From contig CAIYRH010000007.1 of the NCBI GenBank assembly GCA_903928565.1, positions 14,139-78,138 of the forward strand: a stretch of 64,000 bases of DNA, in the 5' to 3' direction. The notes beneath the pieces are model-generated. The model saw only the letters and a list, made by a program, of their open reading frames with translations. It did not search any database and was not told the origin of the DNA. The position numbers were made by a program, and so were the translations under genes. This document shows, one piece after another, positions 16,519 to 47,870 of the stretch. The stretch comes from Candidatus Staskawiczbacteria bacterium (GTDB lineage Bacteria > Patescibacteriota > Minisyncoccia > Minisyncoccales > Staskawiczbacteraceae). Numbering within the stretch: position 1 is the stretch's first letter; every line of letters begins with the position of its first letter.

Positions 16519-16521
16519 AAA

Positions 16522-17262: not shown

Positions 17263-17265
17263 AAC

Positions 17266-19050: not shown

Positions 19051-19061
19051 CGAAATTGTAT

Positions 19062-20114: not shown

Positions 20115-20130
20115 AGTTTTAAAAAACTTT

Positions 20131-23100: not shown

Positions 23101-24513
23101 TATCTCGGAATAAAATTTAATTTGTTGCCACAAATTAATTCCTCTCCATTTTATTGGGTCTATGACCATTACCCCTTGTGCACCATAATCTTGTCCATTG
23201 GGGGCAACTATTTTTTTTATGTTAGAACATTGCTCGTCTGCGCTCTGCGAAGCATTAGTAGCCAGTGGTACACGGTCTTCTCCTGCTTGTTGTCCGGGTT
23301 CGGGTGTTGTGTTGGGGCACCTAAATTCGTCTAACCCATTATATCTTCTGGCACAAGTGTGAGTGGAGAGGTCGCAACCTTCCACCTTAATAATCTTAGA
23401 CCCGCCGCCGGCTACAGAAAAGGTTGCTGTAGCCTTACAGTCGCCATCTGTATTGCAAACCTGTTCGCAGGGCTTTCCGTTTACGTCCTTGTCGCTGGGG
23501 GTAGCACCACTAGTATCTTGTTTGCAATTTACGTGAACATAAATGGGGCCGTGTTCAATTTGGTCTTTAACTGACCAAGGGTCGCCATTTGATTCTTTAA
23601 GCGGTTGGCCGGTTTTTAAATCTTTTAACGGTTGGCCGCCTGAAAGGGCTACGCTTGGGCAACAATCTTTTGTGTCTGGAGGTTGTTTACACGCACCGCC
23701 AACGCAACTTCCTCCGCACGAGCCATTTTGTTGCAACTGACAACCACCATTGGCGGGGTCGCAAACGGGACTGCATTTTGAAGAGCCATCGGGGTTTGCA
23801 CAAGAACAGGTGTCCATTAGTTTTGTTATTTCAGCACCCAACAATGCAGCAACGTTGGCTTTTTTCTGCATGCCTTCAACGAATTGTCTTAAACAAGCAA
23901 CTCTATCTTGGTTAACAAAATCTTTAGAAGTGGGCTGTCTGTTTGAACCGGTTTCTTCAAACGGACTGGGCGTTGCGTAGTCTCCATATTTATCAAAATC
24001 AGTGCAAACGCTAGTTCTAGTTAATAAGTTTTCGGTTAAAATTCCTATTGGAATTTCATTATATGTGGCAACAATTACGCCCGGTGGAACAGCTGTGTCG
24101 TTGCTAGAAAAAGGATTTAAATTAAGTTGTGGCAGAAAATCAATTTTACAACTGCCAATGTTGGGGTTTATTGTATATAAAATTAAAGATGAGCAAACAA
24201 TAATTAATAACCCCAATATTCCCGCTTTTACCCAGGCCTTGCCTTCGTCTGTAAATTTTCCTTGGCCATAGGAAATTAAATAGTAAATTCCTCCAACAAC
24301 AATTGTGGTAACAGCAATTGTTATGGCTAAAATAAGGCCCGCATTAAATAAATAACAAACAAAGTCTCCAATTGTAGAATTGTTATTTAAAGATTTACCA
24401 AGAAAATCTGGGTATTTAACTTCTAAAGTTACCGCAGAAATAAAACTGGCGCGTAGCAAAAAAGCACTTAGCGCGAAAAAGTATAAAGCAAATTTTTTAC
24501 GAAATAATGCCAC
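20131..24513 (-). CDS. Giant (1460 aa) cysteine-rich surface protein with an N-terminal T4SS pilin-like module
   Basis: N-terminal module CYLFNAGLILAITIAVTTIVVGGIYYLISYGQGKFTDEGKAWVKAGILGLLIIVCSSLILYTINPNI. The remaining ~1300 aa contain about 99 Cys (manual count) in CxnC-dense blocks, plus Pro/Thr linkers (PPDTPDTPPTTPSDPG). No TM segment after the module. Confidence 0.6.
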   Translation of the reverse strand: MALFRKKFALYFFALSAFLLRASFISAVTLEVKYPDFLGKSLNNNSTIGDFVCYLFNAGLILAITIAVTTIVVGGIYYLISYGQGKFTDEGKAWVKAGILGLLIIVCSSLILYTINPNIGSCKIDFLPQLNLNPFSSNDTAVPPGVIVATYNEIPIGILTENLLTRTSVCTDFDKYGDYATPSPFEETGSNRQPTSKDFVNQDRVACLRQFVEGMQKKANVAALLGAEITKLMDTCSCANPDGSSKCSPVCDPANGGCQLQQNGSCGGSCVGGACKQPPDTKDCCPSVALSGGQPLKDLKTGQPLKESNGDPWSVKDQIEHGPIYVHVNCKQDTSGATPSDKDVNGKPCEQVCNTDGDCKATATFSVAGGGSKIIKVEGCDLSTHTCARRYNGLDEFRCPNTTPEPGQQAGEDRVPLATNASQSADEQCSNIKKIVAPNGQDYGAQGVMVIDPIKWRGINLWQQIKFYSEILPMWAQGQGFKEDADNLQAARAQLAKCYLAMPYADLISAYKVAPQKDRVVLRQTSAYQDFTTGQAVNASQYCTGFNYNNSTCLKHCNDDCPDTGDGAIQAYGDCDSGSTSGGSGDQVASCVQNAYKTRPCTKGTGDSATFSECITACQSSLKEVCARNYPSCSPEYNNCYQWAGDNGQCVLNNLGKCLFDTQGAKNFANCAKLDSTDKGNINFCINNAYSCKNGSDEFAGYKDCVNTPLSLNCASYNNSLQCSSANGIGNGLWGGCVWNPDICVNKSSSAVCNKAKNQASCTGSCEWKQAQCAGAAACTGLDQTSCTNDTTDQCAWQPANCTVSSTCATFGDPSSCNGSSKCKWQTGTCSQDYSASFLWQKKSVQKCTASGVPATSGKCTSSSNPDATCQEVCPETSKCPTASDCAACPCDKIDKPITFYVPDRSTAISKKDCSSNADCPINQNSTQPSTPGQPSATSQSIAGELCSTDSPSTAAPGATSVPTGSAPANGLNACTITGARCQTDDECFQDQVCVENICMSSGKNAIPCTDDSDCVEEGETCSPTKNVCVTNAGNEKSGTETPNIAIYQMVGPQCNTYSYNDDPLTFYCQDNWWADPQKEGTANPATPVGKEKTCDKGGDIPIGQTVDNALAWANNVFANVELMAKDAQLVLDQMTKIGKAKDTEPVKNYCTCSAQYGNGEPICNTDCKYSQSQSQVPICAPAPPDTPDTPPTTPSDPGCIPNNYQNCVPAGSIYWGNLYWFDSCGNQGSYIAPCIPSPFNWNLPTYNPAPTFPYNNSSKNITASLLGTSANNKIISDIQHFDINNHNPFVLAENGCPPGQVQTGTEQAELGSCDLVPCKGSPCQQVVDYNSQLWNAYKKLKTDYMSFDVNIIKEPRSDILKQLTYSRQQANTCSVNNTIVGGADTRLLSCSRAEDELLPPINQDKLNFGGKDYTGYCYGKNLGNAAGKDLTDDWMCCHEWNDKQVENNNPIYNIKNKNY

Positions 24514-24537
24514 GTATTATTTTGGTTTTTAAAAACT

Positions 24538-26343
24538 TTAATTTTGAGCCGACTCTAAATTTTTCTTTGCTTCTCTGTTTTGTAAAACTTCTTGCGGGTT
24601 TGTTGTAATTATTTGAGTTTCTGTTTGGCTGGCAACTACAGAAAGGAAAACGTGTTTTTTGCCTGCAAAAAATAACCCCTCACCCACCGCAGCTCCCAGC
24701 AATAAATATTTTTCTTGTTCTGTAAGTTGAAAAGTTTTTTGCACAGAATCAATGTCGGCGGTTGATTGCTTCATTAAAAGTTGCAAAGAAGAGTTTGTAA
24801 TAATTGCTTTTCCGTAATCAGACTTCATAAAGTCTGCAACGTCTTGAGTAATTGTTGTAACACCCAGCCAATATTTTCTTCCTCTTTTAACAATTCCAAA
24901 TAAGAAAGAGGCGCCATCGGGTGACTGCATAAGCCACCAGGCCTCATCAATAACCAAAAGTCTTTTTTTCAATTTTTGGCGCACAATATTCCAAATGTAA
25001 CGCATAATAATGTACAAAGCAATTGGCCTTAAAGATTCTTCCATGTCTCTTATGCCAAAAACAACCAAGCTTTTATCCATGGAAATATTTGATTGCTGGT
25101 TAAAGAAATCGGCAAAAGTTCCTTTTGTAAATTTTCCAATACGTTTTACTAAAGAATCTGTGCCAGTCATGCTTTGTAAAATTTCTTCAAAGTCAGACAT
25201 TAAGGGAATGTTGTTTACCCAAGTTTGTGGGTCTGAATCTACGGTAATGTCTCTTACGGCATAAGTTTGCGTTAAAGCTTCATCTAAAATGCTGTCTTCT
25301 TCTGGAGTTAGCCCGCCCAACATAATGCGTAAAAGCCCAACCAAGTTTATAACGTTAGACCTTAAAATATCTGCTGGGTTGTCGTCTGGCCCAGGAATTG
25401 GTAAGTCAAACGGATTTACATGATTTGGTGAAGTTAAAGAAATTTTTAAGAATGCTCCGCCAACTGCGTCGGCTAAAAATTCATATTCATTTTCTGGGTC
25501 AACAATTATGCAGTCTATGCCTTGCATTAAATATCTTAAAATTTCCAGTTTAATGGCAAAAGATTTTCCCGAACCAGATTTTGCAAAAACCACCATGTTG
25601 GCATTTTCCAAACTAAACCTGTCAAACAAAACCAAAGAATTATTGTGACGGTTTATGCCATATAAAATTCCTTCGTTAGAACTTAGGTCAAAACAAATAA
25701 ATGGGAAACAAGTTGAAAGTGGAGCGGTGTCCATTGGCGTGTGCACGTTAATTAAGTCCATCCCATACGGATTGCAAGAAATAAAACCTTCTTTTTGTTT
25801 AAACAATGCCGGCTTTATATAAATTAACCTAGACTCAAAAATTGAACGCAAAGTTAATTCGGTGTCGCGCAGTTCTTTTTCTGATGTTTCATAAATTGTA
25901 ATATACAAACCCAGCCTAAACATTTTTTCTTGGGCAGTCATTAAATTATCTCTTAAGGATTCAATGTCTTTGTAGGCGGTTTCAAGTGCAGGGTCTCTAA
26001 TTAAGCCCTTCTCTTCCCTTTCCAATAATTCTGAAGAAACTTCTGTAACTTTTTTTCTTAACTTTTTTAAAATTAATTCACTGCTTACCGGATGAATGAA
26101 AAAAGAAATATCCATTGGAGTGTTTAAATCTATAACAGGTGAAAACCAACCGGTATTTAAATAACGGGGATAAGAAAAAACGAAAAAAGATTTGGCCAAC
26201 CTTTCGCCAAGTTTTATGTGGTCTTGTAAAACCCCAATATATGGTGGAGCAATAATGTCTTTTACATCAAAAGACTCTTCTTTAAAAATTTGCCCAGTTA
26301 GGTCTTTTTCTTTTTTCCCCAATATATTATCTAAAAGTTTCAT
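24538..26343 (-). CDS. virB4: VirB4/TrbE/CagE-family type IV secretion ATPase
   Basis: Walker A VVFAKSGSGKSFAIK and Walker B RLLVIDEAWWLM. The N-terminal region (FVFSYPRYLNTGWFSPVIDLNTPMDISFFIHP) is typical of Gram-positive-type VirB4 homologs. 601 aa. Confidence 0.85.
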   Translation of the reverse strand: MKLLDNILGKKEKDLTGQIFKEESFDVKDIIAPPYIGVLQDHIKLGERLAKSFFVFSYPRYLNTGWFSPVIDLNTPMDISFFIHPVSSELILKKLRKKVTEVSSELLEREEKGLIRDPALETAYKDIESLRDNLMTAQEKMFRLGLYITIYETSEKELRDTELTLRSIFESRLIYIKPALFKQKEGFISCNPYGMDLINVHTPMDTAPLSTCFPFICFDLSSNEGILYGINRHNNSLVLFDRFSLENANMVVFAKSGSGKSFAIKLEILRYLMQGIDCIIVDPENEYEFLADAVGGAFLKISLTSPNHVNPFDLPIPGPDDNPADILRSNVINLVGLLRIMLGGLTPEEDSILDEALTQTYAVRDITVDSDPQTWVNNIPLMSDFEEILQSMTGTDSLVKRIGKFTKGTFADFFNQQSNISMDKSLVVFGIRDMEESLRPIALYIIMRYIWNIVRQKLKKRLLVIDEAWWLMQSPDGASFLFGIVKRGRKYWLGVTTITQDVADFMKSDYGKAIITNSSLQLLMKQSTADIDSVQKTFQLTEQEKYLLLGAAVGEGLFFAGKKHVFLSVVASQTETQIITTNPQEVLQNREAKKNLESAQN

Positions 26344-26363
26344 AACTTTGAAATTACTCTAAT

Positions 26364-27026
26364 TTATTTTAGTAATTCTGGTAGTATTTCTGGATAGTAG
26401 CCAATTTCGGCTTGGTCTGGGTGGTGAATAGACCAGAAAAGTTCTATGAGTTCGGGCGTTGTAAGTGGCACAGCTTCCAGCCCGCACCTGCGCAACCCCA
26501 TGGAAACATATTCCATTCTTTGCCAAAGTTGCGTTTTGCACCTTTGGAATTCTTCTTCGCTAATTGGTTTGCTGTTTTTCCCACTTCCGGGCGCATCACC
26601 AAAGTTCAATTTTTTTTGTGTTCCTTTTAATCCAAAAATTTCCATTAAGTTGTATGGAATTACAATGTAAAAACTTTTTGTCATAACCACATCCCCCACC
26701 ACCATTTCTTTTATAAATTCTCTGTAAGAAGAAGTTTGTTTTTTTAACAAAGCGTTTGTTTGTTTTTCTTCTAAATCTTTTAAGCTATCTAAATATGGCG
26801 TTATGTTTATGTTTCTTGATTGAATAACAATTTGGCAGAAAAAATCTAAAGAGTTTAAAAAGTTTTGAAAAGCAAAAATTGTGGCAGTTTGTTCTTCCTC
26901 GGATTTTAGTGCAAAATTTATTGAAGAGGTCATTAAAATTCCTCTAATAGAATTATTTTTCAAAAGCAAAACACCCTCTCTAATATCTTGTACTTCTAAA
27001 AATGCTTGTGTTGCTGATTCGGCCAT
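26364..27026 (-). CDS. T4SS-locus protein of unknown function (no NTPase motifs)
   Basis: 220 aa. The N-terminal pattern FLEVQDIREGVLLLKNNSIRGILMTSSINFALKSEEEQTATIFAFQNFLNSLDF..QIVIQS recalls N-terminal regions seen in some VirB4/TraE-type proteins (from memory, low certainty). Confidence 0.4.
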   Translation of the reverse strand: MAESATQAFLEVQDIREGVLLLKNNSIRGILMTSSINFALKSEEEQTATIFAFQNFLNSLDFFCQIVIQSRNINITPYLDSLKDLEEKQTNALLKKQTSSYREFIKEMVVGDVVMTKSFYIVIPYNLMEIFGLKGTQKKLNFGDAPGSGKNSKPISEEEFQRCKTQLWQRMEYVSMGLRRCGLEAVPLTTPELIELFWSIHHPDQAEIGYYPEILPELLK

Positions 27027-27043
27027 AGCGTTGGGTAAGTTTT

Positions 27044-27499
27044 AATTTCTAATTTTTAATTTATATTAAAGTTATATTTAGTTAAGTTTAATTTTATTAT
27101 CAAGCGTGTTTGTTGCTTTTTGGAAGATAAGATGGAATTCATGTGCTTCTTGCCATAACTTCATTATTTTTTCTTTATGTTCGGGGTGATAATTTGATAA
27201 TAATCTTAACCAATATTTTGTTTCATTCGCCTCTTTTTTAGAAATGTAAATTTTATTTCTAAAATCTTTTTTTGAGCTGGACGCATTTGCTTCATAGTAA
27301 TTTGCTCCTATTGATGTGGCTGCTCTAGCCAACTGACCGACTAAATTTTTATTAATATCATCTATTCTAAGTTTTTTTATAAAGTCTAAAATATCTTCTG
27401 AAAACTTCGCAGTTCTCTCTTCTAGGTTATATGTTTTATTATTTATAACTTCGTTCATTTTAAAATTTAATAGAAATTAGAAATTGAAAATTAGAAATT
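27044..27499 (-). mobile_element. Candidate insertion cassette 1: four-helix-bundle gene bracketed by a 19-bp inverted repeat made of stop-containing heptads
   Basis: 27044-27062 aatttctaatttttaattt versus 27481-27499 aaattgaaaattagaaatt (18/19 complementary). Heptads tagaaat/tagaaat/tgaaaat/tagaaat at 27471-27498. The cassette fills the gap between the PrgI-like stop (27499) and the 220-aa start (27026). Confidence 0.4.
27078..27458 (-). CDS. Four-helix-bundle protein (23S rRNA intervening-sequence protein family)
   Basis: LARAATSIGANYYEANASSSKKDFRNKIYISKKEANETKYWLRLL is the family core motif. 126 aa. Confidence 0.8.
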   Translation of the reverse strand: MNEVINNKTYNLEERTAKFSEDILDFIKKLRIDDINKNLVGQLARAATSIGANYYEANASSSKKDFRNKIYISKKEANETKYWLRLLSNYHPEHKEKIMKLWQEAHEFHLIFQKATNTLDNKIKLN

Positions 27500-27906
27500 C
27501 ACTTCGTCTTCAGGTCTATTAACGTTTTTGTTCTTTTTAATTGGCTTGTTTGCGCTTGTAAAACAGGACCCTGATCTATTTTTTTAATTTTAGTGCGGGA
27601 AATTGGTTTAAACGGATAAGGCGATTCTTTTTTCTTCCATGTGTAATTTTTACCTCCCATTGAAAACCCAATTGAGCCCAAAATAACATTTAAAATTGGC
27701 GTGCCATTTATTGTTCCAAATGCCAAAATTGCAGAAATAATAAAAAGTATTACAGACACTATATAAAAAACCGGTTTTGGTAAAAGGTAATATAAAAAGA
27801 AAGAAAGAATCCCCGCCCCCACCAAATAAAAGAATTGCCTAAATGATATAAAGAAAGCAATTTTACTTTCGGACTCAATAAATTGTGGAATAGGATATTG
27901 CTCCAT
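27499..27906 (-). CDS. PrgI-family / VirB3-like small T4SS membrane protein
   Basis: IPQFIESESKIAFFISFRQFFYLVGAGILSFFLYYLLP followed by a second TM helix. Size (135 aa) and position upstream of virB4 match Gram-positive PrgI/VirB3 analogs. Confidence 0.6.
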   Translation of the reverse strand: MEQYPIPQFIESESKIAFFISFRQFFYLVGAGILSFFLYYLLPKPVFYIVSVILFIISAILAFGTINGTPILNVILGSIGFSMGGKNYTWKKKESPYPFKPISRTKIKKIDQGPVLQAQTSQLKRTKTLIDLKTK

Positions 27907-27910
27907 GATT

Positions 27911-28378
27911 GTTGAATTAAGAGTTTTGAATTTTGAATTTCGATTAAAATTTGAATTTCTAATTTTAAAAATTTATTTCATAGATGAGATGATTTTTCCG
28001 AATATAAAAGTAAGTTCTTGAGTTTCGCGCCATAAAACTTCAGCTTCATTTTTTCTGCCAGGTTCGCATTCTGTTATCATCTTTAACCAATGCATTGTTT
28101 CTTGAGCTTCTTTTTTGCAAATAAATATTTTATTTTTGAAATCTTTTCTAGAACTTGCGGCATTTGCCTCCATGTAGTTTGCCCCAATACTCGTTGCAGA
28201 TCTAACTAACTGGTTTATTAGCGGCCTACTTATGTTGTCTTCCATAATGGTCCTACAAAATTTGATAGTGTTTCCGCCAAATCTCGAAGTTCTCTCTTCT
28301 AGGTCGTATTTATTGTTCATAAAATTTCGAAATTAAGTCATTTAAAATTTATTCGAAATTCGAAAATCAGAATTCAAC
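27911..28378 (-). mobile_element. Candidate insertion cassette 2: four-helix-bundle gene with imperfect inverted arms of tgaattt-type heptads
   Basis: The left arm starts gttgaatt (27911) and the right arm ends aattcaac (28378). tgaattt units at 27927, 27934 and 27952. The reverse complement of the right arm reads gttgaattctgattttcgaatttcgaataa. Confidence 0.35.
27973..28320 (-). CDS. Four-helix-bundle protein (same subfamily as 27078-27458)
   Basis: LVRSATSIGANYMEANAASSRKDFKNKIFICKKEAQETMHWLKMI. 115 aa. Confidence 0.8.
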   Translation of the reverse strand: MNNKYDLEERTSRFGGNTIKFCRTIMEDNISRPLINQLVRSATSIGANYMEANAASSRKDFKNKIFICKKEAQETMHWLKMITECEPGRKNEAEVLWRETQELTFIFGKIISSMK

Positions 28379-28453
28379 ATTATTTTATTATACCATAATA
28401 ATTATTAGTAGATACAAGCGTTATTCACATGTGCAATGCGCAGGGCCAAAGTA

Positions 28454-28482
28454 TTGACAAGGTGCCAATAATATGATATAGT
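28454..28482 (+). promoter_or_regulatory. Strong sigma70-type promoter of the SPFH gene (TTGACA-17-TATAGT with TG extension)
   Basis: ttgaca aggtgccaataatatga tatagt. The -35 element is part of an inverted repeat, ttgacaaggt (28454-28463) / accttgtcaa (about 28497-28506). Confidence 0.5.
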
Positions 28483-28590
28483 AATGGCATCAATGAACCT
28501 TGTCAAATACAGCTTTAGAAGGTTTGGGGTGTACCCAACCGGCTGTCATTTGATTGTTTTGAATAGTAGCAACAGAAAGGAAAAACAGAG

Positions 28591-30027
28591 ATGAAAATCA
28601 TGAAATGGGTTACGCTTGGCGTCGTGTTGTTGAACTTTGTCTTCGCTCTCGCTTGGCTCTATGCCACCAAAGCCAGTTTCGTCTGGTGGGTGGTGTACGG
28701 CACAGCGATTGTCATTGCACTTGGCATCTGGTGGTTTGTAAAATCACCGGCCACGGCGCGATGCGCGATAAAGGCACTGTTCACGGGCACGCGGCGAGCG
28801 GCAACGGCAACATGTGGAGTAGGTGCTCCTCTGCTGGCCCGACTAGTGGCGAAGGCAAAGACTGTCGGCAAAATCCTTTTTTGGATTCTGTTGGTAATCA
28901 TTTTCGCCTTTGTCTTCAAAGTCCTCTACGGTGGCAATGCCAGCTTTGGACAGTGGCTGGTCTACTACCTCGCTCTGGCATGGGTGTTTGGTGGTTTAAG
29001 GACCATCGGCACCGCTGAGGTCGCACTTCAAAGCCGTTTTGGTAGCATCAAGAAAAAGATCTACCGGAGCGGTCTCACGTGGGTCCCCCCATTCCCAGGG
29101 ATAAGCCTCTACCGGATCACGACCGAGCCGATAACATTCAAGTTCGAGGGAGTAGAATCACACAGCTTGCGGTGTAAAGATCGCTTGCTGGTGTTTGCCG
29201 ACATTGTTGGGAACATACGGTTCCCCTATGATGAAATTGACTCTCTCATCTTGATGATCAAGTCGAAAGTCCCGCTCGATGAGGCAGGGCTTCAGAATAA
29301 GGTCGAGGAAGAGGTGGTTAGTGGCATGAGGGGAATTGTGGCCAAGTTCTCCCTTGAGGAAGCCTTGGCAAAGGATAACCTCGAGGAGATTAGAAAAGCA
29401 GCTCAGACGTTCTTGCTCAGAAAAACCGGCTACTTCGCAAAGGCCGGGATTTGTGGCAATAACGGTAAAAACTTCACGCCAGGTACTGGTGAGGTTATCG
29501 TGCGAATTGAACAAATTCGTACGACTCCAGGGTTGGAAGCGGCTCTGCAAAAACCCGCGATTGCCAAACTTGAGGCCGAAGCCGCGAAATCAACACAGGA
29601 ACGGGACGCAGCTCTTATAGCCGGTCCGTTCCATGTTGCGATGGCTGAGTGGGTCACCGCTCAGTTGCCCGCAGATAAGAGCAAGTCCCCCGAGCAGGTA
29701 ATGGCAGAACTCGTTGAGAGCGGTGCCTACTCCGCACATGCAACGGTCGTAAAAGACCTAATGCTAGCTAATAGCGGGCATCTCCAAGTCGCCAAAATGG
29801 AAATTGGTGGGCCGGGGGGTAAATCGCTCCCCGACAGTCTCCAGTATTTGTCATTAGGCGGTGGCGGAGGCGCAGGCCTCATGCTACCTGGCGGGCGTCG
29901 TCAACCTCGCCAAGTGGGCGGCGGAAAACCAAACCCGTCGGCAGAACGATCAGCGTTCTTCGAGAAGAATTACGGCATTAAGCCGACCCCCGAAGACATT
30001 GCTGACGATGACGATAGTGGCTACTAG
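28591..30027 (+). CDS. SPFH/Band-7 (stomatin-prohibitin-flotillin-like) membrane protein, high-GC
   Basis: Four N-terminal TM helices. SPFH-type core (GTAEVALQSRFGSIKKKIYRSGLTWVPPFPGISLYRI...), an Ala/Glu-rich coiled coil, and a Gly-rich tail (GGGGGAGLMLPGG). A sampled line (28801-28860) is 60% GC versus 20-25% in flanking lines. Confidence 0.65.
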   Translation: MKIMKWVTLGVVLLNFVFALAWLYATKASFVWWVVYGTAIVIALGIWWFVKSPATARCAIKALFTGTRRAATATCGVGAPLLARLVAKAKTVGKILFWILLVIIFAFVFKVLYGGNASFGQWLVYYLALAWVFGGLRTIGTAEVALQSRFGSIKKKIYRSGLTWVPPFPGISLYRITTEPITFKFEGVESHSLRCKDRLLVFADIVGNIRFPYDEIDSLILMIKSKVPLDEAGLQNKVEEEVVSGMRGIVAKFSLEEALAKDNLEEIRKAAQTFLLRKTGYFAKAGICGNNGKNFTPGTGEVIVRIEQIRTTPGLEAALQKPAIAKLEAEAAKSTQERDAALIAGPFHVAMAEWVTAQLPADKSKSPEQVMAELVESGAYSAHATVVKDLMLANSGHLQVAKMEIGGPGGKSLPDSLQYLSLGGGGGAGLMLPGGRRQPRQVGGGKPNPSAERSAFFEKNYGIKPTPEDIADDDDSGY

Positions 30028-30091
30028 CTTAACGGGTGGGTCCAATCCCCACAAAACAATCATGCGGGCGTAATTCCCGCGAAACAAACAA

Positions 30092-30141
30092 GGGGCGGTT
30101 GCAATCGACGTAATGTCGAAAGCACCCGCCCCCCTTTTTTT
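30092..30141 (+). terminator. GC-rich intrinsic terminator of the SPFH gene
   Basis: GGGGCGG (30092-30098) pairs with CCGCCCC (30126-30132), enclosing an inner tcgac-gtaat-gtcga hairpin, followed by T7. Confidence 0.55.
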
Positions 30142-30157
30142 ATACCTTTATTTTTTT

Positions 30158-30574
30158 CTATTCTATTGGCTCTCTGTAGGCGTCTGGGCCTTGGTTCTGT
30201 TGAACAACCGGTGGAGCTATATTTTCTAAAGGTTTTTTAATTCTAGGCTTCCTGACAACAGGAATTTTAGGATTTATTTCACTTGCCGCTAATTTTTCTG
30301 CAATAGGCACAAGTTTACTTATAATTTCCGCATAAATGGTGCTTGCAGTTAATGCTGGTATGTTTAGTTCTGTTGCTAAAAAAGTGCATATGTCTTTTTC
30401 GACAGCGCCATCTACTACAATTTTTTCAACAGCACTAATAATAATTTGCCCTTGCAAGGGTTTGTTGTTAGATAATTTCTCTAAAATATCTTCATTAGAT
30501 TCTTCTATTTTGTTATCTTGAAGAATTTTTGTAATTATAGGAAACGTATCTTCTTTGAAATTTATTTTTTCCAT
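30158..30574 (-). CDS. Hypothetical protein of the T4SS-like locus
   Basis: 138-aa ORF immediately downstream of the VirB6-like gene. No TM helix or recognisable motif. Confidence 0.45.
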   Translation of the reverse strand: MEKINFKEDTFPIITKILQDNKIEESNEDILEKLSNNKPLQGQIIISAVEKIVVDGAVEKDICTFLATELNIPALTASTIYAEIISKLVPIAEKLAASEINPKIPVVRKPRIKKPLENIAPPVVQQNQGPDAYREPIE

Positions 30575-30596
30575 AGTATTTTTTTAATATATACTT

Positions 30597-33077
30597 TTAT
30601 CTTCTTGGATGGTTTCTCTCAAAATCGGCTCCTGGCGGAATTATTATTCTTGGGCCTTCTGGCGCCGGTGTGGCATTGCCGCCACCTCCTCCTTCGCCTC
30701 GTGTGTCGTCGTTTTTTCTTACTCTTCTCGTCGCTTCTTTCATGGCGTTAAAGCGTTCAACAGCTTTTTCTTGAGCTACGGCGTCACCATGCTGGAGCTC
30801 TCTTAGGTGGTCATTAAAAGCATTTGTAAATGCAGCCACTTTTTCATCATTTCCATTTCTAAGCAAGTTTGTCATTTGGTTGGTGCCAGCGTATTTAGCA
30901 AATGTAGGCATAGCTTCTTTTGGTAATTCCAAAACTTTATCCGTTGGCATTTTCTTAATGGCTTTTTCAATTCTTTCCTCACCCAACTTTTCTTTTCTCT
31001 TTATAATGTCTTCAGATTTAATGTTATTTCCAAAAGTGACAATTTGTTTTGCCACAGCTTCTTTAGACATACCCGAAGTCGCCAGCCTTTCTTCTTCTTT
31101 ATCCATTATGCTTCTCTTCGCCTCGGCATCGGAAACTGGGGCAGTTATTCCTAGGGCGCCCTCTATAGTTCTTCGGTGTCTTATCGTTCGGCTAGCATTT
31201 TCCATGTCGGTAGCTGTAACTCCTTCCCCTTTCATAGAATGTTTAGCTATTTTGATTGCTCCTTTTTCAGATATGCCTTCTCCAACCTTTTTATCGATGC
31301 GTTCTTTCAATATATGTGTCATTATTTCTTCCTTTGATGGAGTAGCTCCTGCTGTTGGGCTGGCTTTTCCTAATAATTCTTTTGAAACACCAAATGATTT
31401 AGCATAAGCAATAGCTTCTTCTCGTTTTGTTGAATCAATGGCGCTAAGAGCATTCCTCTTGGCTAATATTTGCACTGCCGAGGCTTTTTCTGCTGCTTTT
31501 GCGGCGGTTAATGGTTTCTGTGCAGCAATTTTACCAAGCACTTCGTTGTCTTGAATTGCGTCTAATTTAGCCAAAGGATCTTTCATTCGGGCAGCCTGGT
31601 TAGAAGCAGTTGTGCCTTGCGGGACAATACGAATTCCTGTTGCCATACCAAATTTTTCTGCTGCATTAGTAGCAAAATCTTTTACTTTTTGTCCGCCCCT
31701 TTGTGCGGCTCCGGCTACCCCTGTTAATTTTGCAGCTCCCGTGAGCCCCCCCATTGCTAACATTGCTCCGCCAGAAACTAGCCCAATGGCAGCGGTGCTC
31801 GCCATTTTTGCAATGCCGGTTTTTTGTGAAGTCATTTTAAACCCTACAACTAAAAATCCTAATACAATAACAACTTGAGTTATTAACTGTCCGGCATTTG
31901 GCGTTGTGGTAGACGGCGAAGATAAAGTAGCAATTGGCTGATTCAAAAGGCTTTGTGTAGTCATTACAGTGGCGGCAAGCCACAAAACAAACGAACCAAT
32001 TACGCCAATGAAGACCCATTTTAAAAAGTGGCCCCACCACTCTGTCCATAAATGTCTTGAAGCCGGGAAAACCCAAAAAGTAAATGCCAAGGGCGACAAA
32101 ATATATAACATTATTAAAATTACATATCTTGCCAATAAAATAAAAAGTAAATAAAAATAAGTAAAAGCAATTCCCAAATAAACCACTCCGAACATAGCAC
32201 ACAAGGTTACATAATTAAAAATACCCGATGCTGCGAGATCATTAGTAAGTAAAGTTTTTGTGGCAATTTGTAGGCGGAATAAAAGAATGGCCGGGCCACC
32301 AATTACTGGTATTGTGGCAGCTGCTGTCTGTCCTGCTCCTTGTAGCCCCATTCCAGAAAAGGAACTTGTTATTAAATTTGCTGCATCTATTAGCAACCCG
32401 CAGAATAACCCAGAAAAATTAATTGCTAAAGCAACTAATATTAAGGGCAGTAAAAGTTTTTTTGCTTCATACTCTCTAAGTCTTAAAGCAGTAGCAATGC
32501 CAACTACAACAAAACCCAAAACAATAAGCATGTTGCCCAAATTTCTTACTTGCGCCCAAGCTTTGGTAAAATCTGCACCACCGTTGGAACTTTGGTCTGT
32601 TGTTATTGGTGCACTTAAATAGTTAATTAAAATAAAGTTAAGTGAAGACATGGCTGAGCTGGCTATCATATATGGGCCATCAACTAAAACATCACCAATT
32701 AAACCGCCAAGCCATTTAAACCCTATGCCCTCGTCAAATGGTGGGTCTTGGAGCCTTGTGTTTTCAGCCGTACTTTCATAGGCCTTTTGTGCAGCAGCGG
32801 TTCCAGTGCCAGGCCCACAAAAAGACATAATCCATTCCTGAGCATTGGCGACGGTATTTCTACTATTGAATATTTTTCCCACTGCTAATGAAAGGTCTAC
32901 AAAACCACGGGCTACCGAACTTCCAGCTGCATTGAGCATGCCCTGATTATTCCATTGCGTGCACCAAGGAGCTAACCCGTGTGCTACAACTGGAGATAAA
33001 AATCCTATAGATAGCGCAAGTAAAAAGGTAAAAGCAGTTAGTTTCTTATGTGCTAAAAATTTAGAGAATAAATTCAT
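30597..33077 (-). CDS. VirB6/TrbL-like polytopic T4SS membrane protein with a long hydrophilic C-terminal extension
   Basis: Signal peptide, then a periplasmic segment, then at least 7 hydrophobic helices (FTKAWAQVRNLGNMLIVLGFVVVGIATAL...LILVALAINFSGLFCGLLIDAANLI is TrbL-like). A ~370-aa Ala/Lys/Glu-rich tail ends in GEGGGGGN. Confidence 0.6.
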   Translation of the reverse strand: MNLFSKFLAHKKLTAFTFLLALSIGFLSPVVAHGLAPWCTQWNNQGMLNAAGSSVARGFVDLSLAVGKIFNSRNTVANAQEWIMSFCGPGTGTAAAQKAYESTAENTRLQDPPFDEGIGFKWLGGLIGDVLVDGPYMIASSAMSSLNFILINYLSAPITTDQSSNGGADFTKAWAQVRNLGNMLIVLGFVVVGIATALRLREYEAKKLLLPLILVALAINFSGLFCGLLIDAANLITSSFSGMGLQGAGQTAAATIPVIGGPAILLFRLQIATKTLLTNDLAASGIFNYVTLCAMFGVVYLGIAFTYFYLLFILLARYVILIMLYILSPLAFTFWVFPASRHLWTEWWGHFLKWVFIGVIGSFVLWLAATVMTTQSLLNQPIATLSSPSTTTPNAGQLITQVVIVLGFLVVGFKMTSQKTGIAKMASTAAIGLVSGGAMLAMGGLTGAAKLTGVAGAAQRGGQKVKDFATNAAEKFGMATGIRIVPQGTTASNQAARMKDPLAKLDAIQDNEVLGKIAAQKPLTAAKAAEKASAVQILAKRNALSAIDSTKREEAIAYAKSFGVSKELLGKASPTAGATPSKEEIMTHILKERIDKKVGEGISEKGAIKIAKHSMKGEGVTATDMENASRTIRHRRTIEGALGITAPVSDAEAKRSIMDKEEERLATSGMSKEAVAKQIVTFGNNIKSEDIIKRKEKLGEERIEKAIKKMPTDKVLELPKEAMPTFAKYAGTNQMTNLLRNGNDEKVAAFTNAFNDHLRELQHGDAVAQEKAVERFNAMKEATRRVRKNDDTRGEGGGGGNATPAPEGPRIIIPPGADFERNHPRR

Positions 33078-33079
33078 AT

Positions 33080-33097
33080 TAGTTTGTAGTGAGTAGT
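33080..33097 (+). repeat. Solo copy of the tagtttg-type heptad repeat
   Basis: tagtttg tagtgag tagt, 3 nt upstream of the VirB6-like start codon. Confidence 0.6.
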
Positions 33098-33161
33098 ATT
33101 AAATTGTTTTATTTTACACCATCTAAACTTTTAAAGGTAGTCAAGTTATTCACACATTTAC

Positions 33162-34473: not shown

Positions 34474-34541
34474 TTATATATTGTATCATAGATTGTAATT
34501 TGTGATACAATTAATAAACATAAAAAATTAAATAAAAGAAT

Positions 34542-37343: not shown

Positions 37344-37403
37344 TTATCAAAAATTTTCCGGCATTGAAGAAAAAGTAGGTGTCTATATATGTCATCAAAT
37401 AGC

Positions 37404-37433
37404 TTGACAAACATCATATCTGTATAGCATAAT
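37404..37433 (+). promoter_or_regulatory. Sigma70-type promoter of the BNR-propeller gene (TTGACA-18-CATAAT)
   Basis: ttgaca aacatcatatctgtatag cataat. The ~105-nt leader contains the palindrome attgaaaattttcaat. Confidence 0.45.
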
Positions 37434-37542
37434 AAAGCCAGACTATTGGGATTATGGCAAGTGCCACAAAAGGCCTTTGTCATAGTTCCAATATTGAAAA
37501 TTTTCAATTCCAAACCAACAATCAACCCCCACAACCAACCCC

Positions 37543-39093
37543 ATGAAAACAACAACCGCCGTCGCCGCAAAGGCGATTTCCATGAAGAAGATGGTTATAG
37601 GCGCCGTGTTGGCGCTTATGGCCTCAATTGCGATTTTCGTTGCCAACCAGGCGGAGCCGACGAAGGCGCGGGTGTACCCCACGCAAGCGACGGTGGCAGC
37701 GTTTCACCAAAACGCTCCATTGGTCCCAATGTCCAGAAGCGACACGGGGCATTCAGTCTCACGAACCGCCGTCGACAATAGTGCCGATTACACCGCTCCG
37801 CTGAAGAGCGGAGTGTCCACGTTCAACCAAAACCAGCCCTCAACCAAGACGCTGGTGAACTCCAGGTCGGGCGGAGCATTCTACGTCTTCCCCACCACCG
37901 TGGTCTCATCCGCCCCGAAGACAGTCAATCTCTCAAGAAGTGGTGCCGGTAACTATCGTGCGACTTCGTCGACGAACGGCAACTACGGTAGTGGGTACTA
38001 TCCCTCTTTGGGGGGTGGCGACTACCTCAACTTCGGCTACCCTGGTGGTGGCGGAGGTGGCGGTGGGTCTATTGGAAATCCCGATAACGGGAACCAGACC
38101 CACCCGCAACTGCCGTTTAACGGGTACGGAGGCACGCCGGGTGGAAACGGCCAAGACACCACACTGTGGGTTGGCCTTACATGCTCCAATGATGGAGTAT
38201 ATGTTTTCGCCTGTGGCAAAGGCCGAATGATTTCTGTGTCTGACGACGGCGGAACAACGTGGAAAGCGTGCGGAGAAATCCGTAACTACTCGGGTATCTC
38301 CGTTTCTGGCACGGGCCAGTATGGCATAGCTACCGTTTTCCACGGTGGCGTGTACGCCACCAAAGACTTCGGTCAAACATGGAAAGCTGAGCCAGGCCTG
38401 AAAGACGCGGATTATTCGGCCTGTGCCATCTCTAAAGATGGCCTCGTCCGGACTCTAACCGTTTCGGGCGGAAATATTTTCACGTCAAAAGACGGCGGAA
38501 AAAACTACCGCTTGGTTGCGAGCCCTCGCGATTGGCGTGGGGTTACGTTGTCGGTCTACGGCGAGCTTCAGGTTGCGGTGGACGCAAAGGGTTATCCCAA
38601 TTTCTCAGTCAACAGCGGTGTTGACTGGAAGCCGGTTGGCTCCTTAGTCAGCAGCTGGTCTGCTGTGACAATGTCCATCGATAGCATGTTCGGTCTCTAT
38701 GCCGACGGCAAGGCATTGTACAGATGGGAGAAATTTGACCTAACTCCCATTCTGGCCTTAAACGTCGCGGCAATTGCCGTGGCTACCGACCGGTACGGGC
38801 TGAACAGCCTTGTTACCGATGGCAAAGCTCTTTACGAGTCATTTGACTACAGCCACAAGTGGAGGACGATTGTCGCCCCCACCAGAACTTGGGCTGTTAT
38901 TGCTATGGCTGCGGAGGTGCCACAACGCATCTACGTTGCCGAGCAGAACGGTGCAGTGTGGAGCTCTTACGAGTTCGATAAGGTGACGGGCAACCGTATC
39001 TGGCATCAAGGTGTCACAAATGCTGACGCCCCTTATCCAGATGTTGCTCCGGCCCCAACGAGTCCCCCGGGATTCTTCGGCTCGGAGTTCTGA
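37543..39093 (+). CDS. Secreted BNR/Asp-box repeat beta-propeller protein, high-GC
   Basis: Signal/anchor, a Gly-rich linker (GGGGGGGGS), then repeated Asp-boxes: SVSDDGGTTWK, ATKDFGQTWK, TSKDGGKNYR, SVNSGVDWK. A sampled line (38041-38100) is 62% GC. Confidence 0.6.
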   Translation: MKTTTAVAAKAISMKKMVIGAVLALMASIAIFVANQAEPTKARVYPTQATVAAFHQNAPLVPMSRSDTGHSVSRTAVDNSADYTAPLKSGVSTFNQNQPSTKTLVNSRSGGAFYVFPTTVVSSAPKTVNLSRSGAGNYRATSSTNGNYGSGYYPSLGGGDYLNFGYPGGGGGGGGSIGNPDNGNQTHPQLPFNGYGGTPGGNGQDTTLWVGLTCSNDGVYVFACGKGRMISVSDDGGTTWKACGEIRNYSGISVSGTGQYGIATVFHGGVYATKDFGQTWKAEPGLKDADYSACAISKDGLVRTLTVSGGNIFTSKDGGKNYRLVASPRDWRGVTLSVYGELQVAVDAKGYPNFSVNSGVDWKPVGSLVSSWSAVTMSIDSMFGLYADGKALYRWEKFDLTPILALNVAAIAVATDRYGLNSLVTDGKALYESFDYSHKWRTIVAPTRTWAVIAMAAEVPQRIYVAEQNGAVWSSYEFDKVTGNRIWHQGVTNADAPYPDVAPAPTSPPGFFGSEF

Positions 39094-39108
39094 GAACATT
39101 TTTAGCAA

Positions 39109-39150
39109 AAGCGCCTAGCGGTCTTCGGACTGCTTCGCGCTTCTTTTTTT
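39109..39150 (+). terminator. GC-rich intrinsic terminator of the BNR gene
   Basis: aagcgc...gcgctt outer stem, inner agcggtc-ttcg-gactgct stem with a UUCG loop, followed by T7. Confidence 0.55.
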
Positions 39151-39212
39151 GCATAAAAAAGTGTGTATAACTATTTGACCTAGGGTCTTAAAAATGGTAA
39201 GTTAGAACTAAG

Positions 39213-47412: not shown

Positions 47413-47432
47413 CCTGCCTGCCGGCAGGCAGG
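47413..47432. repeat. 20-bp perfect GC palindrome CCTGCCTGCCGGCAGGCAGG (copy in the rpsO leader)
   Basis: Identical 20-mer also at 47818-47837. Lies 24 nt upstream of the rpsO start. Confidence 0.8.
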
Positions 47433-47790: not shown

Positions 47791-47800
47791 AAATCTCAAA

Positions 47801-47858: not shown

Positions 47859-47870
47859 ATAAAATTGGGG

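Follow-up and report, generated by a model that had tools for sequence, protein, structure and literature searches.

A GC-rich gene for a stalked beta-propeller protein, found in the 64,000-nucleotide stretch of DNA analysed here ('the window'), is best read as a resident, hypervariable gene for host contact, occupying a slot of persistently high GC. We regard this reading as moderately probable; it is built on direct observations of composition, architecture, fold, synteny, conserved flanks and contrast in divergence. The T4SS locus of Staskawiczbacteria-like genomes contains two conserved 'variable slots', one holding the stalked propeller and the other an SPFH protein. A preliminary description of the window had attributed both GC-rich units to the same donor or vehicle; this attribution was not supported, each gene having orthologs at the equivalent syntenic position in related Patescibacteria.

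The propeller unit and its neighbourhood

The window is a piece of oriC-proximal chromosome: dnaN, dnaA, rnpA, yidC and jag occupy 13-17.7 kb, and the T4SS genes and PNPase come after them. The host is probably a Staskawiczbacteria-like Patescibacterium, judging by its VirB6 homologs, which are named Staskawiczbacteria or Patescibacteria. Besides the genes listed in Table 1, bAvd-like four-helix-bundle genes are present in the locus. The conserved order is PNPase, p340, DksA/TraR-zf, LysM-M23 and propeller (these two on the opposite strand) and KsgA, continuing with VirB6, p138, SPFH (opposite strand), PrgI, TrsD and VirB4. A gene is assigned to a T4SS locus when it lies within 20 CDS of virB4, in the company of TrsD, PrgI/VirB3, VirB6 and a VirB1-like hydrolase (PMC12102498), and such is the position of the propeller gene. 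PMC12102498, the main survey of Patescibacterial T4SSs, describes T4SS genes as having been identified as indispensable to epibiotic growth in the class Saccharimonadia, and Patescibacterial T4SSs as usually devoid of a relaxase and thought to be repurposed; it mentions neither SPFH, nor a propeller, nor GC content.

Table 1. Features of the propeller unit, of the SPFH unit and of the T4SS locus, with their positions in the window
Feature	Position	Strand	Remarks
Sigma-70-type promoter of the propeller gene, TTGACA-18-CATAAT	37404..37433	+	11 of 12 consensus positions matched
Leader hairpin, 5'-proximal, 21 bp	37444..37493	+	conserved TTTGTCA in 3' arm
Perfect 16-nt palindrome ATTGAAAATTTTCAAT	37493..37508	+	directly 3' of the leader hairpin
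C/A-rich tract before the start codon, without Shine-Dalgarno	37509..37542	+	read from the sequence; unpaired in the fold
CDS of 516-aa membrane-anchored stalked beta-propeller protein	37543..39093	+	GC 0.559, GC3 0.63
N-terminal helix, aa 6-35, hydrophobic core aa 17-33	37558..37647	+	AlphaFold2 secondary structure
Disordered low-complexity stalk, aa 36-206 (~170 aa)	37648..38160	+	pLDDT below 50
Poly-Gly tract G168-G175, then S, inside the stalk	38044-38070		tract itself 38044-38067
Seven-bladed BNR/Asp-box-type beta-propeller, aa 207-492	38161..39018	+	pLDDT ~80-98
Canonical Asp-box SDDGGTTW, S233-W240	38239-38262		
Intrinsic terminator, GC-rich interrupted 12-bp stem, UUCG loop, U7 tail	39110..39150	+	
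Promoter of the downstream LysM-M23 hydrolase gene, TTGACC-17-TGgTAAGTT	39175..39203	+	
SPFH unit (promoter, CDS and 3' hairpins)	28454..30137	+	
SPFH promoter, TTGACA-17-TATAGT with TG	28454-28482	+	conserved in 12 loci
SPFH/Band-7 CDS	28591-30027	+	GC 0.534, GC3 0.59
Three GC-rich 3' hairpins plus U-run after the SPFH CDS	30034-30137	+	
MPF-FATA-like T4SS locus core	17788..33077	-	Pfam, synteny, PMC12102498
Pilin-like genes and 1460-aa protein of the T4SS core	within 17788..33077	-	
VirB4	24538-26343	-	
TrsD/TraC-like gene	26364-27026	-	
PrgI/VirB3	27499-27906	-	
p138	30158-30574	-	
VirB6/TrbL	30597-33077	-	homologs carry PF04610 and PF19590

The N-terminal helix of the protein is predicted to act as a signal-anchor or uncleaved signal peptide, and its K-K-(I/M)-G..hydrophobic pattern is kept in the orthologs. 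It is followed by a stalk rich in Gly/Ser/Asn/Tyr, which contains the poly-Gly stretch already noticed in the preliminary description. The AlphaFold2 model, built from a remote-homolog alignment, has seven blades (pLDDT ~90), and Foldseek matched it to propellers of YCF48 (5ojp, 5oj3 and 2xbg) and GH74, its closest matches, with E ~1e-11 to 1e-12. Four or more Asp-box-like motifs had been announced; of those found, only one is canonical, another being near-canonical (TKDFGQTW) and 3 to 4 degenerate (SKDGGKNY, SVNSGVDW, SFDYSHKW). The modelled fold is that of the BNR/Asp-box proteins, a propeller defined by an Asp-box-bearing hairpin in each blade, and the sequence falls below the PF02012/PF15899 thresholds. 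Its Pfam BNR, YCF48 and sortilin scores are all under the curated cut-offs (24 bits against a cut-off of 27 for PF02012, 17 against 27 for PF14870). HMMER retrieved 4023 relatives, mostly multi-propeller giants, and those sampled carry BNR_6 or BNR; a PDB sequence search with the protein yielded spurious low-complexity matches only.

The surface role suggested earlier fits a protein with an N-terminal membrane helix, a disordered stalk and a propeller, whose gene is flanked by those of the LysM-M23 hydrolase and VirB6 in a T4SS locus. From this architecture and neighbourhood, we infer that the protein is an adhesin or has another host-contact role. The propeller unit is probably a resident accessory gene of a chromosomal, oriC-proximal MPF-FATA-type T4SS locus, in which the stalk would hold the propeller beyond the cell wall. 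The propeller itself would serve as a binding module (adhesin or host recognition), working with the T4SS and the LysM-M23 wall hydrolase.

The unit is probably monocistronic, read from a conserved sigma-70 promoter into an mRNA with a 5'-proximal hairpin and ending at a conserved intrinsic terminator. The promoter, the leader with its palindrome and the GC-rich terminator with a UUCG loop were all recovered as first described, the leader measuring ~103 nt, instead of ~105, when counted from the predicted (unmapped) transcription start. The propeller and SPFH (28454) promoters are the two best promoter matches within 27.5-40.5 kb. A host-unusual promoter was rejected, since ordinary genes elsewhere in the window are preceded by consensus promoters that are just as good. 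The -35 (TTGACAA) and -10 (TAGCAT(T/A)AT) blocks are invariant in the orthologous upstream regions of three related genomes, L007, L009 and L014.

The fold of the whole leader had a dG of -28.8 kcal/mol and a z of -5.1, none of 200 shuffles being as stable. A hairpin of the same topology, with different arm sequences, appeared when the L009 and L014 leaders were folded at minimum energy, and in the centroid fold only for L007; the z values of these single-sequence ortholog folds were weak (-1.0 to -1.8). RNAalifold, run on a MAFFT alignment of the leaders, returned no consensus structure, and no credible Rfam family could be assigned to them in a scan of 27-41 kb. Conservation of the ATTGAAAATTTTCAAT palindrome is limited to its 5' part, within the leader motif CATTGA(A/C)AA(T/C)TT; nine such palindromes were observed in the window, against 2.4 +/- 1.5 expected. 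A CA-rich tract similar to that of the propeller gene also precedes the SPFH gene of L014, and in the other orthologs a GGAGG-like Shine-Dalgarno takes its place. The terminator (dG -21.9 kcal/mol, z = -3.9) is orthologous to those of L007 and L009, and the UUCG loop is also found in L009. In the promoter of the downstream hydrolase gene, whose product has LysM and Peptidase_M23 domains (Pfam), the GTGnATAACTnnTTGAC and AAnATGnTAA blocks are invariant in four genomes; this promoter marks the 3' edge of the conserved frame.

The companion SPFH gene was found in the same slot in 28 loci. As first described, it shares with the propeller gene the plus strand and the promoter-leader-CDS-terminator layout. 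An alignment of the promoter, leader and terminator regions of the two units, which had been proposed as a check of their common origin, revealed no homology beyond generic features.

Divergence and composition of the slots

Orthologs of the propeller gene (L007:7302-8825, L009:5692-7200 and L014:7336-8760) keep the TM, the stalk, the Gly-rich tract, the seven blades and the Pro-rich tail, and in these three genomes the slot reads LysM-M23 hydrolase, propeller, then KsgA/VirB6. The propeller was found in 4 of the ~38 related loci examined, all in one subclade; in L044, a different GC-rich protein fills the slot. Nucleotide identity among the orthologous loci is 52-76% for the flanks (promoter, leader hairpin, terminator and downstream promoter), and 38-43% for the CDS when the window is compared to its orthologs (60% for L007-L009). 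The corresponding amino acid identities of the window to L007, L009 and L014 are 31-34% for the propeller and 29-36% for SPFH, compared to 84-92% for PNPase, 93-94% for VirB4 and 91-93% for TrsD. Two neighbours, VirB6 and p138, are equally divergent and yet AT-rich. Comparing slot and housekeeping genes by dS brought no information, since between the compared genomes synonymous sites are saturated throughout. Independent contigs are 100% identical across both slot CDSs, with a variant stretch only in PrgI. The slot combines a conserved non-coding frame with a hypervariable coding sequence, and its content would have been replaced at least occasionally during evolution, presumably by recombination.

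The composition of the propeller CDS (GC1/2/3 of 0.53/0.52/0.63) is atypical. The ~62% GC initially reported is correct for a local line of sequence; the whole gene is at 0.559 and its highest 300-nt window at 0.603, so the value describes that line and not the gene. The 57 other ORFs scored in the window have a median GC3 of 0.31 and do not exceed 0.42; the propeller lies ~8.9 robust SD above the window median. Among all 59 ORFs, only the propeller and SPFH genes are GC3 outliers. Their codon usage is near-flat and draws on codons that are rare in the host.

Is this excess specific to the window? For the propeller, GC3 and locus median are 0.63/0.31 in the window, 0.55/0.22 in L014, 0.47/0.24 in L009 and 0.29/0.23 in L007. 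The L007 value is host-like, and the excess is therefore not obligatory for a propeller gene. For SPFH, 29 of 30 genes (28 loci) have a GC3 above the locus median (mean difference +0.185, Wilcoxon p = 3.7e-9), which makes the anomaly lineage-wide and not a recent event; it depends weakly on background GC3 (r = 0.36). Further metagenome loci with the same context gave SPFH GC3 values of 0.55 (L052) and 0.56 (L054), and a truncated copy in L051 showed no elevation (0.32). Pooled third positions of SPFH genes are close to even (A.22, C.24, G.25, T.28). Unrelated proteins that occupy the same slots in L028 and L044 are GC-rich too.

GC-richness would be a long-standing property of the propeller and SPFH slots, maintained over time, and not the unameliorated trace of one transfer. 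Slot CDSs would stay within roughly 45-63% GC3 and keep a near-flat codon usage, compared to 14-52% GC3 for the other genes of these genomes. Candidate forces that may keep them so are selection on the mRNA or CDS, biased fixation, and a compositionally distinct allele pool. Translational selection is unlikely to be responsible, since the GC3 of ribosomal S15 is 0.27 in L007 and enrichment also extends to the G-ending codons AAG, GAG and ACG.

Resident gene or imported segment

On balance, the GC-rich unit is likely to be a resident gene and not a freshly imported foreign island. Recent islands are expected to have atypical composition and codon usage, to be missing from the site in close relatives and bordered by repeats, a tRNA or mobility genes, and to have a closer homolog in the donor lineage than in relatives of the recipient; only the first of these was observed for the propeller. 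Its flanks are orthologous and better conserved than the CDS, which goes against the import initially proposed, and it is in sister Patescibacteria that its best true orthologs occur. Two protein searches, one covering 5.8 billion clusters and the other 1.84 billion representatives, returned no homolog above 50% identity, and tblastn against 50,697 phage records gave no match. In IMG/VR, relatives of the propeller are AT-rich giant-virus multi-propeller genes only; the IMG/VR scan for SPFH, whose full alignment was too divergent to serve as a query, returned nothing. A repeat search detected no att-like or border repeats around either unit, and Pfam scans of the window's ORFs reported no integrase or transposase domains.

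A possible but rather unlikely alternative is a continuous import of cassettes. The slots would be recombination hot spots receiving alleles from unsampled GC-richer Patescibacteria or mobile elements; the CDS would be replaced by homologous recombination in the conserved flanks, and most copies would be incompletely ameliorated. Conserved flanks could indeed act as homology arms, unrelated protein families are found in the same slots, and SPFH subtypes are incongruent with genome relatedness: the subtype of the window is shared with the distant genomes L005, L024 and L033, and not with the nearest ones, L014, L007 and L009. The host-like L007 propeller could be an old, ameliorated resident, and in the GC-richer genome L025 the GC3 of SPFH equals the background. 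However, alleles would have to turn over faster than synonymous sites become saturated, yet identity between the SPFH alleles of different species never exceeds 65%. Nor did any search retrieve a relative in a GC-rich genome or in viral contigs, the tblastn against phage records being likewise empty. Furthermore, the GC3 values of the two slots (propeller/SPFH) covary within genomes (0.63/0.59, 0.55/0.55, 0.47/0.51 and 0.29/0.47; n = 4), which is not what independent draws from a pool predict. Against the resident reading, the SPFH subtype incongruence and the different slot families also fit purely recurrent import, provided that an unsampled GC-richer donor pool exists.

It is unlikely, though worth stating, that an active process specific to the two opposite-strand slots of this Paceibacteria-type T4SS locus (targeted diversification, GC-biased repair or conversion, or strong mRNA selection) holds any CDS placed there near 50-60% GC and drives its hyperdivergence, while the non-coding frame stays conserved. 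If true, this would be a previously undescribed mode of evolution of host-contact proteins in ultra-small epibiotic bacteria, distinct from HGT.

We consider improbable the model first put forward, in which the unit was recently acquired from a high-GC donor through the same vehicle that delivered SPFH, neither gene having been ameliorated. Several features speak for it: the GC3 values of the two genes, 0.63 and 0.59, stand out against a background of 0.31, their codon usage is closer to each other than to that of their orthologs (with a strong preference for TTC, TAC, AAC, GTC and ACG), each ranks first or nearly first in its family for GC-richness, and neither resembles its allele in the nearest genome, L014, from which it is set apart by subtype or by strong sequence divergence. 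However, relatives have orthologs of the promoter, leader, terminator and downstream promoter; at most the CDS was exchanged. The units are also 7.5 kb apart, with genes of host composition between them, their flanks do not align with each other, and neither border repeats nor an integrase or transposase domain (Pfam, window's ORFs) accompany them. The propeller has no homolog above 50% identity, the best SPFH match is 44% identical and itself lies in a syntenic Patescibacterial locus, and the same GC excess is seen in 29 of 30 SPFH genes. A relic of a single transfer also sits poorly with the saturation of synonymous sites, the lack of any SPFH allele above 65%, and the failure of two large protein searches to reveal a donor.

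Very improbable is an active diversification restricted to the slots, that is, a targeted mutagenic or biased-repair process, DGR-like in outcome, which would drive both the hyperdivergence and the near-uniform base composition of the slot CDSs. These two properties do coincide in the same two CDSs, with sharp boundaries at the CDS ends, and bAvd-like four-helix-bundle genes lie in the locus. Independent samples nevertheless yield CDSs with 100% DNA identity, VirB6 and p138 next to them diverge just as much while being AT-rich, and in several genes GC3 lies many SD above 0.5, at up to 0.59-0.63. A DGR was rejected, as Pfam scans of the window's ORFs detected no reverse-transcriptase domain and neither a template repeat nor a repeat of the CDS was found in the window.

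Finally, an assembly chimera or contaminating GC-rich reads, which abrupt GC steps at the gene borders and the breaking of other assemblies into short contigs near these genes might evoke, is excluded for practical purposes by identical junctions in independent assemblies (L001 is 100% identical over 34532-39398, a segment that includes the PKD gene, the propeller and what lies downstream; L003 and L004 match the SPFH junctions at 100%; all three come from separate samples and assemblers) and by the orthologous frames in other genomes.

Significance and known systems

Patescibacteria depend on attachment to host cells and, to our knowledge, their host-contact proteins are largely unknown. With ~30% identity, compared to 93-94% for VirB4, the slot products are therefore candidate host-range determinants. 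As SPFH shows, a compositional outlier, which would usually be read as recent HGT, can be a stable and lineage-wide property of one gene. This calls for caution in island-calling in small AT-rich genomes, and the evolutionary pattern is worth testing.

Like YCF48/HCF136, sortilin-Vps10 and GH74 proteins (PF02012, PF15899, PF14870, PF15902), the propeller has seven blades of ~42 aa, of the form W..S.DG....A...G.IY.S.D.G.TW. Unlike them, it remains below Pfam cut-offs, has a single canonical Asp-box and is membrane-anchored on a long stalk; unlike those of YCF48 and GH74, its locus has no photosystem or glycoside-hydrolase context. Membership of the YCF48/HCF136 family, photosystem II assembly factors of oxygenic phototrophs, was rejected, the resemblance being in fold only, and the window contains no photosynthesis genes.

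HMMER relatives of the propeller carry BppL_N, Phage_tail_C or Peptidase_S74 chaperone domains, as in phage tail fibres and baseplates. Structural matches in BFVD include tail-fibre and baseplate proteins, and relatives and structural matches taken together also include endosialidase-chaperone proteins. These phage-type resemblances suggest that the propeller may be a ligand- or receptor-binding module, although identity is ~30% over four blades and the gene is chromosomal. PrgB of pCF10 is the surface adhesin of a Gram-positive (MPF-FATA) conjugative T4SS. The propeller would likewise be a surface protein encoded in a T4SS locus beside a wall hydrolase, with presumed target-cell contact; the likeness is one of position and presumed role.

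Phage morons are promoter-gene-terminator units of deviant GC inserted between phage genes. The propeller gene is similarly autonomous in promoter and terminator and deviates in composition from its neighbours; these are, however, T4SS, KsgA, PNPase and oriC-region genes and not a prophage, and the promoter and terminator are orthologous across genomes in a conserved slot, the CDS alone being deviant. Diversity-generating retroelements are frequent in CPR. As with their targets, hypervariable surface-exposed binding proteins are found here in Patescibacteria with bAvd-like genes nearby; unlike in those targets, there is no intrapopulation variation and divergence extends over the whole CDS instead of a C-terminal variable region. 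In replacement-type flexible genomic islands, such as O-antigen and capsule loci, conserved flanks enclose variable surface-structure content. The slots differ from these in having one gene each, content GC-richer than the genome and no shared recent alleles, but resemble them in their constant chromosomal position, their conserved flanks and their very divergent or non-homologous content specifying exposed structures.

The propeller unit and its protein

The propeller unit belongs with two known kinds, BNR-type propeller surface proteins and replacement-type hypervariable loci. All sequence features listed for it in the preliminary description (promoter, leader, palindrome, G8-S tract, Asp-boxes and UUCG terminator) were found. 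The 62% GC reported there fits the richest 300-nt stretch, but not the propeller gene overall. The leader is about 103 nt long, counted from a predicted start of transcription, and the promoter is host-typical, because ordinary genes in the window also have consensus-quality promoters. Perfect 16-nt palindromes numbered 9 in the window, compared to 2.4 expected. Only two GC3 outliers were detected in the window, the propeller gene (about 8.9 robust SD) and the SPFH gene (about 7.8); the other 57 scored ORFs had a median GC3 of 0.31 and a maximum of 0.42.

Table. Features of the propeller unit, its protein and the surrounding region (window coordinates; aa, residues of the propeller protein)
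Feature	Position	Strand	Evidence or value
Sigma promoter TTGACA-18-CATAAT	37404-37433	+	promoter match
Leader hairpin, 21 bp	37444-37493	+	RNA fold, z = -5.1
Perfect palindrome ATTGAAAATTTTCAAT	37493-37508	+	sequence, directly after hairpin
C/A-rich tract, no Shine-Dalgarno sequence	3' of palindrome, before ORF	+	sequence
Propeller ORF	37543-39093	+	GC 0.559; GC1/2/3 = 0.53/0.52/0.63
Terminator with UUCG loop, U7 tail	39110-39150	+	dG -21.9 kcal/mol, z = -3.9
Helix	aa 6-35		AlphaFold2
Disordered region	aa 36-206		AlphaFold2
G8-S tract	aa 168-176		
7-bladed propeller	aa 207-492		AlphaFold2, block pLDDT mostly 80-98
Canonical Asp-box	aa 233-240		
Disordered Pro-rich tail	C-terminal to propeller		AlphaFold2
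SPFH gene	28591-30027	+	GC3 0.59
dnaN, dnaA	13-17.7 kb	-	
rnpA, yidC, jag	13-17.7 kb	+	
T4SS locus: pilin-like genes, VirB4, TrsD/TraC-like gene, PrgI/VirB3, TrbL/VirB6 protein	17.8-33 kb	-	

The AlphaFold2 model was built on an alignment of remote homologs. Foldseek neighbours of the propeller were YCF48 and GH74 BNR propellers, plus generic WD40-like propellers, and BFVD structure matches included tail-fibre and baseplate proteins. Pfam matches (BNR, PSII_BNR, sortilin) were all under the curated cut-off; one Asp-box is canonical, one near-canonical, and three to four are degenerate. Scanning all 1.84 billion representatives with HMMER gave 4023 relatives, about 30% identical over some four blades, the majority being giant multi-propeller proteins, and some bearing phage baseplate, tail-tip or endosialidase-chaperone domains. 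Apart from the protein itself, no homolog with more than 50% identity was present in either large protein search.

The surface role proposed earlier is a reasonable reading of the predicted anchor, stalk and propeller, and of the position beside LysM-M23 and VirB6. The N-terminal helix would be a membrane anchor (signal-peptide processing is predicted), and the disordered stalk of about 170 residues could span the wall, the propeller then being an exposed binding module. The protein may thus contact host cells during T4SS-dependent epibiosis and evolve fast with host range, as suggested by the VirB1-like LysM-M23 and VirB6 neighbours, the extreme divergence, and the occurrence of related propellers in receptor-binding organelles of phages. 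An enzymatic role is possible, but there was no sign of one.

Conserved frame and GC-rich slots

Anchoring on VirB6 gave 37 genome loci plus several from metagenomes. Gene order is strongly conserved: PNPase, p340, DksA/TraR-zf, LysM-M23, propeller, KsgA, VirB6, p138, SPFH, PrgI, TrsD, VirB4 (p138 and p340 being handles of locus genes), with LysM-M23, propeller and SPFH on the opposite strand. Three related genomes, L007, L009 and L014, have a propeller ortholog of like architecture in the same slot, that is, at the syntenic position, and the propeller comparison therefore rests on four orthologs, with 64 kb of the present genome seen. All four keep the propeller promoter (-35 TTGACAA, -10 TAGCATTAT), the leader motifs TTTGTCA and CATTGAAAAYTT, and the LysM-M23 promoter downstream of the propeller gene. 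The terminator stem is common to the window, L009 and L007, the L014 stem being much less similar, and the UUCG loop is present in L009 as well as in the window. In L009 and L014, the leader's minimum-energy fold has a hairpin with this topology; L007 shows it in the centroid fold only. Since only the motif is kept across genomes, the palindrome noticed earlier is in part a conserved leader motif, but its symmetry is not conserved. Nucleotide identity was 52 to 76% in the non-coding flanks, compared to 38 to 43% in the propeller CDS (60% for L007-L009).

By profile search, 30 SPFH-like genes were located across 28 loci, always between p138 and PrgI and in opposite orientation to the T4SS genes. 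GC3 exceeded the locus median in 29 of the 30 genes (mean +0.185, Wilcoxon P = 3.7e-9) and was the highest of the locus in 18 cases, while SPFH GC stayed at 0.44 to 0.56 across background GC3 values of 0.14 to 0.52 (r = 0.36). Metagenome SPFH genes in the same context were also GC-rich (L052, 0.55; L054, 0.56); a truncated copy in L051 (0.32) showed no elevation. The promoter TTGACAAGGTG...TATGATATAATAA is kept in 12 loci, and P0008, the homolog on L005, repeats the whole layout: same extended -10, GC-rich CDS, GC-rich terminator and AT-rich flanks. For the propeller, GC3 relative to the locus median was 0.63/0.31 in the window, 0.55/0.22 in L014, 0.47/0.24 in L009 and 0.29/0.23 in L007. GC-rich genes also encode unrelated proteins in these slots. 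In L028, the SPFH promoter is followed by a gene for a 158-aa TM plus coiled-coil protein; in L044, the propeller slot encodes a 291-aa protein with a TM anchor. Slot genes have near-flat third-position usage (background A.37, C.17, G.14, T.33), and the host-rare codons CTC, GTC, ATC and CGG are frequent. The distinctive trait is a persistently GC-rich, hyperdivergent CDS within a conserved non-coding frame, the SPFH slot being alike in 28 loci. The T4SS literature examined (PMC12102498) does not mention such a CDS, nor SPFH, propeller or GC content.

Tandem SPFH-like pairs, both GC-elevated, were observed in L023 (2379-5778) and L029 (3322-6010); duplicated or stacked alleles can thus share one slot. 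In the SPFH promoter region (28454-28506), an inverted repeat TTGACAAGGT...ACCTTGTCAA flanks the -10 element, and its second arm can also be read as the -35 box of a minus-strand promoter toward PrgI/VirB4 (TTGACA-17-TACTAT at 28506). The arrangement may represent an operator, or two divergent promoters that overlap. The propeller leader likewise has a TTGACAA...TTGTCAA pair. Contigs from other samples match the GC-rich genes at 100% identity and diverge sharply from the window at slot edges, L001 beyond 39398, some 300 nt past the propeller stop codon, and L002 inside PrgI (27620-27830, 64 differences in about 200 nt), which indicates strain-level mosaicism or assembly breaks.

Divergence and the GC excess

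Amino-acid identities were compared among the four closest genomes. They were 84 to 93% for PNPase, 92 to 94% for VirB4 (24538-26343, minus strand) and 87 to 93% for TrsD, compared to 31 to 34% for the propeller (L007-L009, 56%), 29 to 39% for SPFH, 38 to 49% for VirB6 and 24 to 47% for p138. Between the window and the three other genomes, VirB4 identity (93 to 94%) equals or exceeds that of PNPase (84 to 92%). Cytoplasmic parts of the T4SS locus are highly conserved, and envelope-exposed parts hyperdivergent.

Replacement of slot content does occur, as indicated by non-homologous slot proteins and by SPFH subtype sharing: the window's subtype is common to the more distant L005, L024 and L033, and not to L014, L007 and L009. 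Taken together with synonymous saturation and the results on import and hypermutation below, this leads us to consider the GC excess a long-standing property of the slots. Candidate causes are selection acting on the mRNA or the coding sequence, recombination-linked GC-biased fixation, and a pool of alleles with distinct composition. A 5' hairpin, GC-rich body and strong 3' hairpins would together suit a long-lived transcript, which suggests the first of these causes.

Rapid import, with slot alleles drawn from a GC-rich pool, is difficult to uphold. No SPFH alleles were more than 65% identical between two species, no GC-rich genome yielded a relative, within-genome GC3 covaries between the two slots (n = 4), and the GC3 difference of the L007-L009 propeller pair is uniform along the gene. 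Synonymous differences in this pair were 72 AT(L007)/GC(L009) and 39 in the opposite direction. Active hypermutation of slot CDSs is unlikely: neither a reverse transcriptase nor a template repeat was found in the window, several slot genes are well over 0.5 GC3, slot CDSs are identical between samples, and VirB6 and p138 are equally divergent, yet AT-rich.

The preliminary description held that both islands probably came from one donor or vehicle. In codon usage, the window's propeller and SPFH genes are indeed nearer each other than to their own orthologs, and both are unlike the corresponding alleles of L014, the nearest genome, which favours a shared history. Import from one donor was nevertheless not supported by flanks, borders, mobility genes or donor searches: aligned to each other, the flanks of the two units had no homology apart from generic motifs, a repeat search found no border repeats at either unit, Pfam scans of window ORFs reported no mobility-gene or reverse-transcriptase domain, and no donor-like homolog appeared in either large protein search, viral contigs or phage genomes. 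The units lie 7.5 kb apart, with genes of host composition between them. A single old transfer does not account for the pattern, since synonymous sites are saturated in all genes (same-codon fraction about 0.65 in housekeeping genes, regardless of amino-acid identity) and a vertically kept gene should therefore have reached its own compositional equilibrium. An assembly chimera is excluded, because the junctions are 100% identical in contigs that come from other samples and other assemblers.

Chromosomal setting

The window belongs to the core chromosome, in the replication-origin region, and also carries RuvABC-type genes, PBP, PNPase, CCA-adding enzyme, DprA, ComM and NusA. Its T4SS locus matches the MPF-FATA-like, oriC-proximal, relaxase-poor T4SS of Patescibacteria, and VirB1-like LysM/M23 hydrolases are associated with VirB4 in Paceibacteria (PMC12102498). 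VirB6 homologs carry the names Staskawiczbacteria, Patescibacteria or Parcubacteria. The origin region (13160-17742) includes an AT-rich gap of 272 nt (15902-16173); with oriC in this gap, the T4SS block would be transcribed head-on to replication and both GC-rich genes would be co-directional.

A 933-aa PKD-domain surface protein (34542-37343, plus strand; host-like GC3 0.29) is encoded between KsgA and the propeller promoter. A homolog was not detected in any of the 15 related loci mapped, and its gene looks like a lineage-specific insertion within this variable region. The KsgA/RsmA rRNA dimethyltransferase gene (33654-34473, minus strand) appears disrupted: residues 1-93 (34474-34196) and 114-273 (34163-33657) are in different frames, with about 20 residues absent and the blocks merely 32 nt apart. 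It is unbroken, at 271 to 303 aa, in most related loci examined.

Three 23S_rRNA_IVP/bAvd-like four-helix-bundle genes lie within the T4SS locus (27078-27458, 27973-28320 and 33214-33573, minus strand), at least two flanked by inverted repeats (for example, 27036-27070/27459-27493 and 33162-33193/33632-33663). They are not at these positions in L007, L009 and L014, and occur elsewhere in four other loci (L011, L013, L019, L030), a pattern suggestive of small elements, either mobile or intervening-sequence-like. Repeats of the TAGTTTGTAGT type were seen at 33077-34186. Identical perfect 16-nt GC-rich palindromes occur as two pairs: TGCCTGCCGGCAGGCA at 47415-47430 and 47820-47835, around a GIY-YIG gene (47548-47892), and TAAGCGGTACCGCTTA at 59944-59959 and 60271-60286, around the 3' part of ORF 59544-60245.
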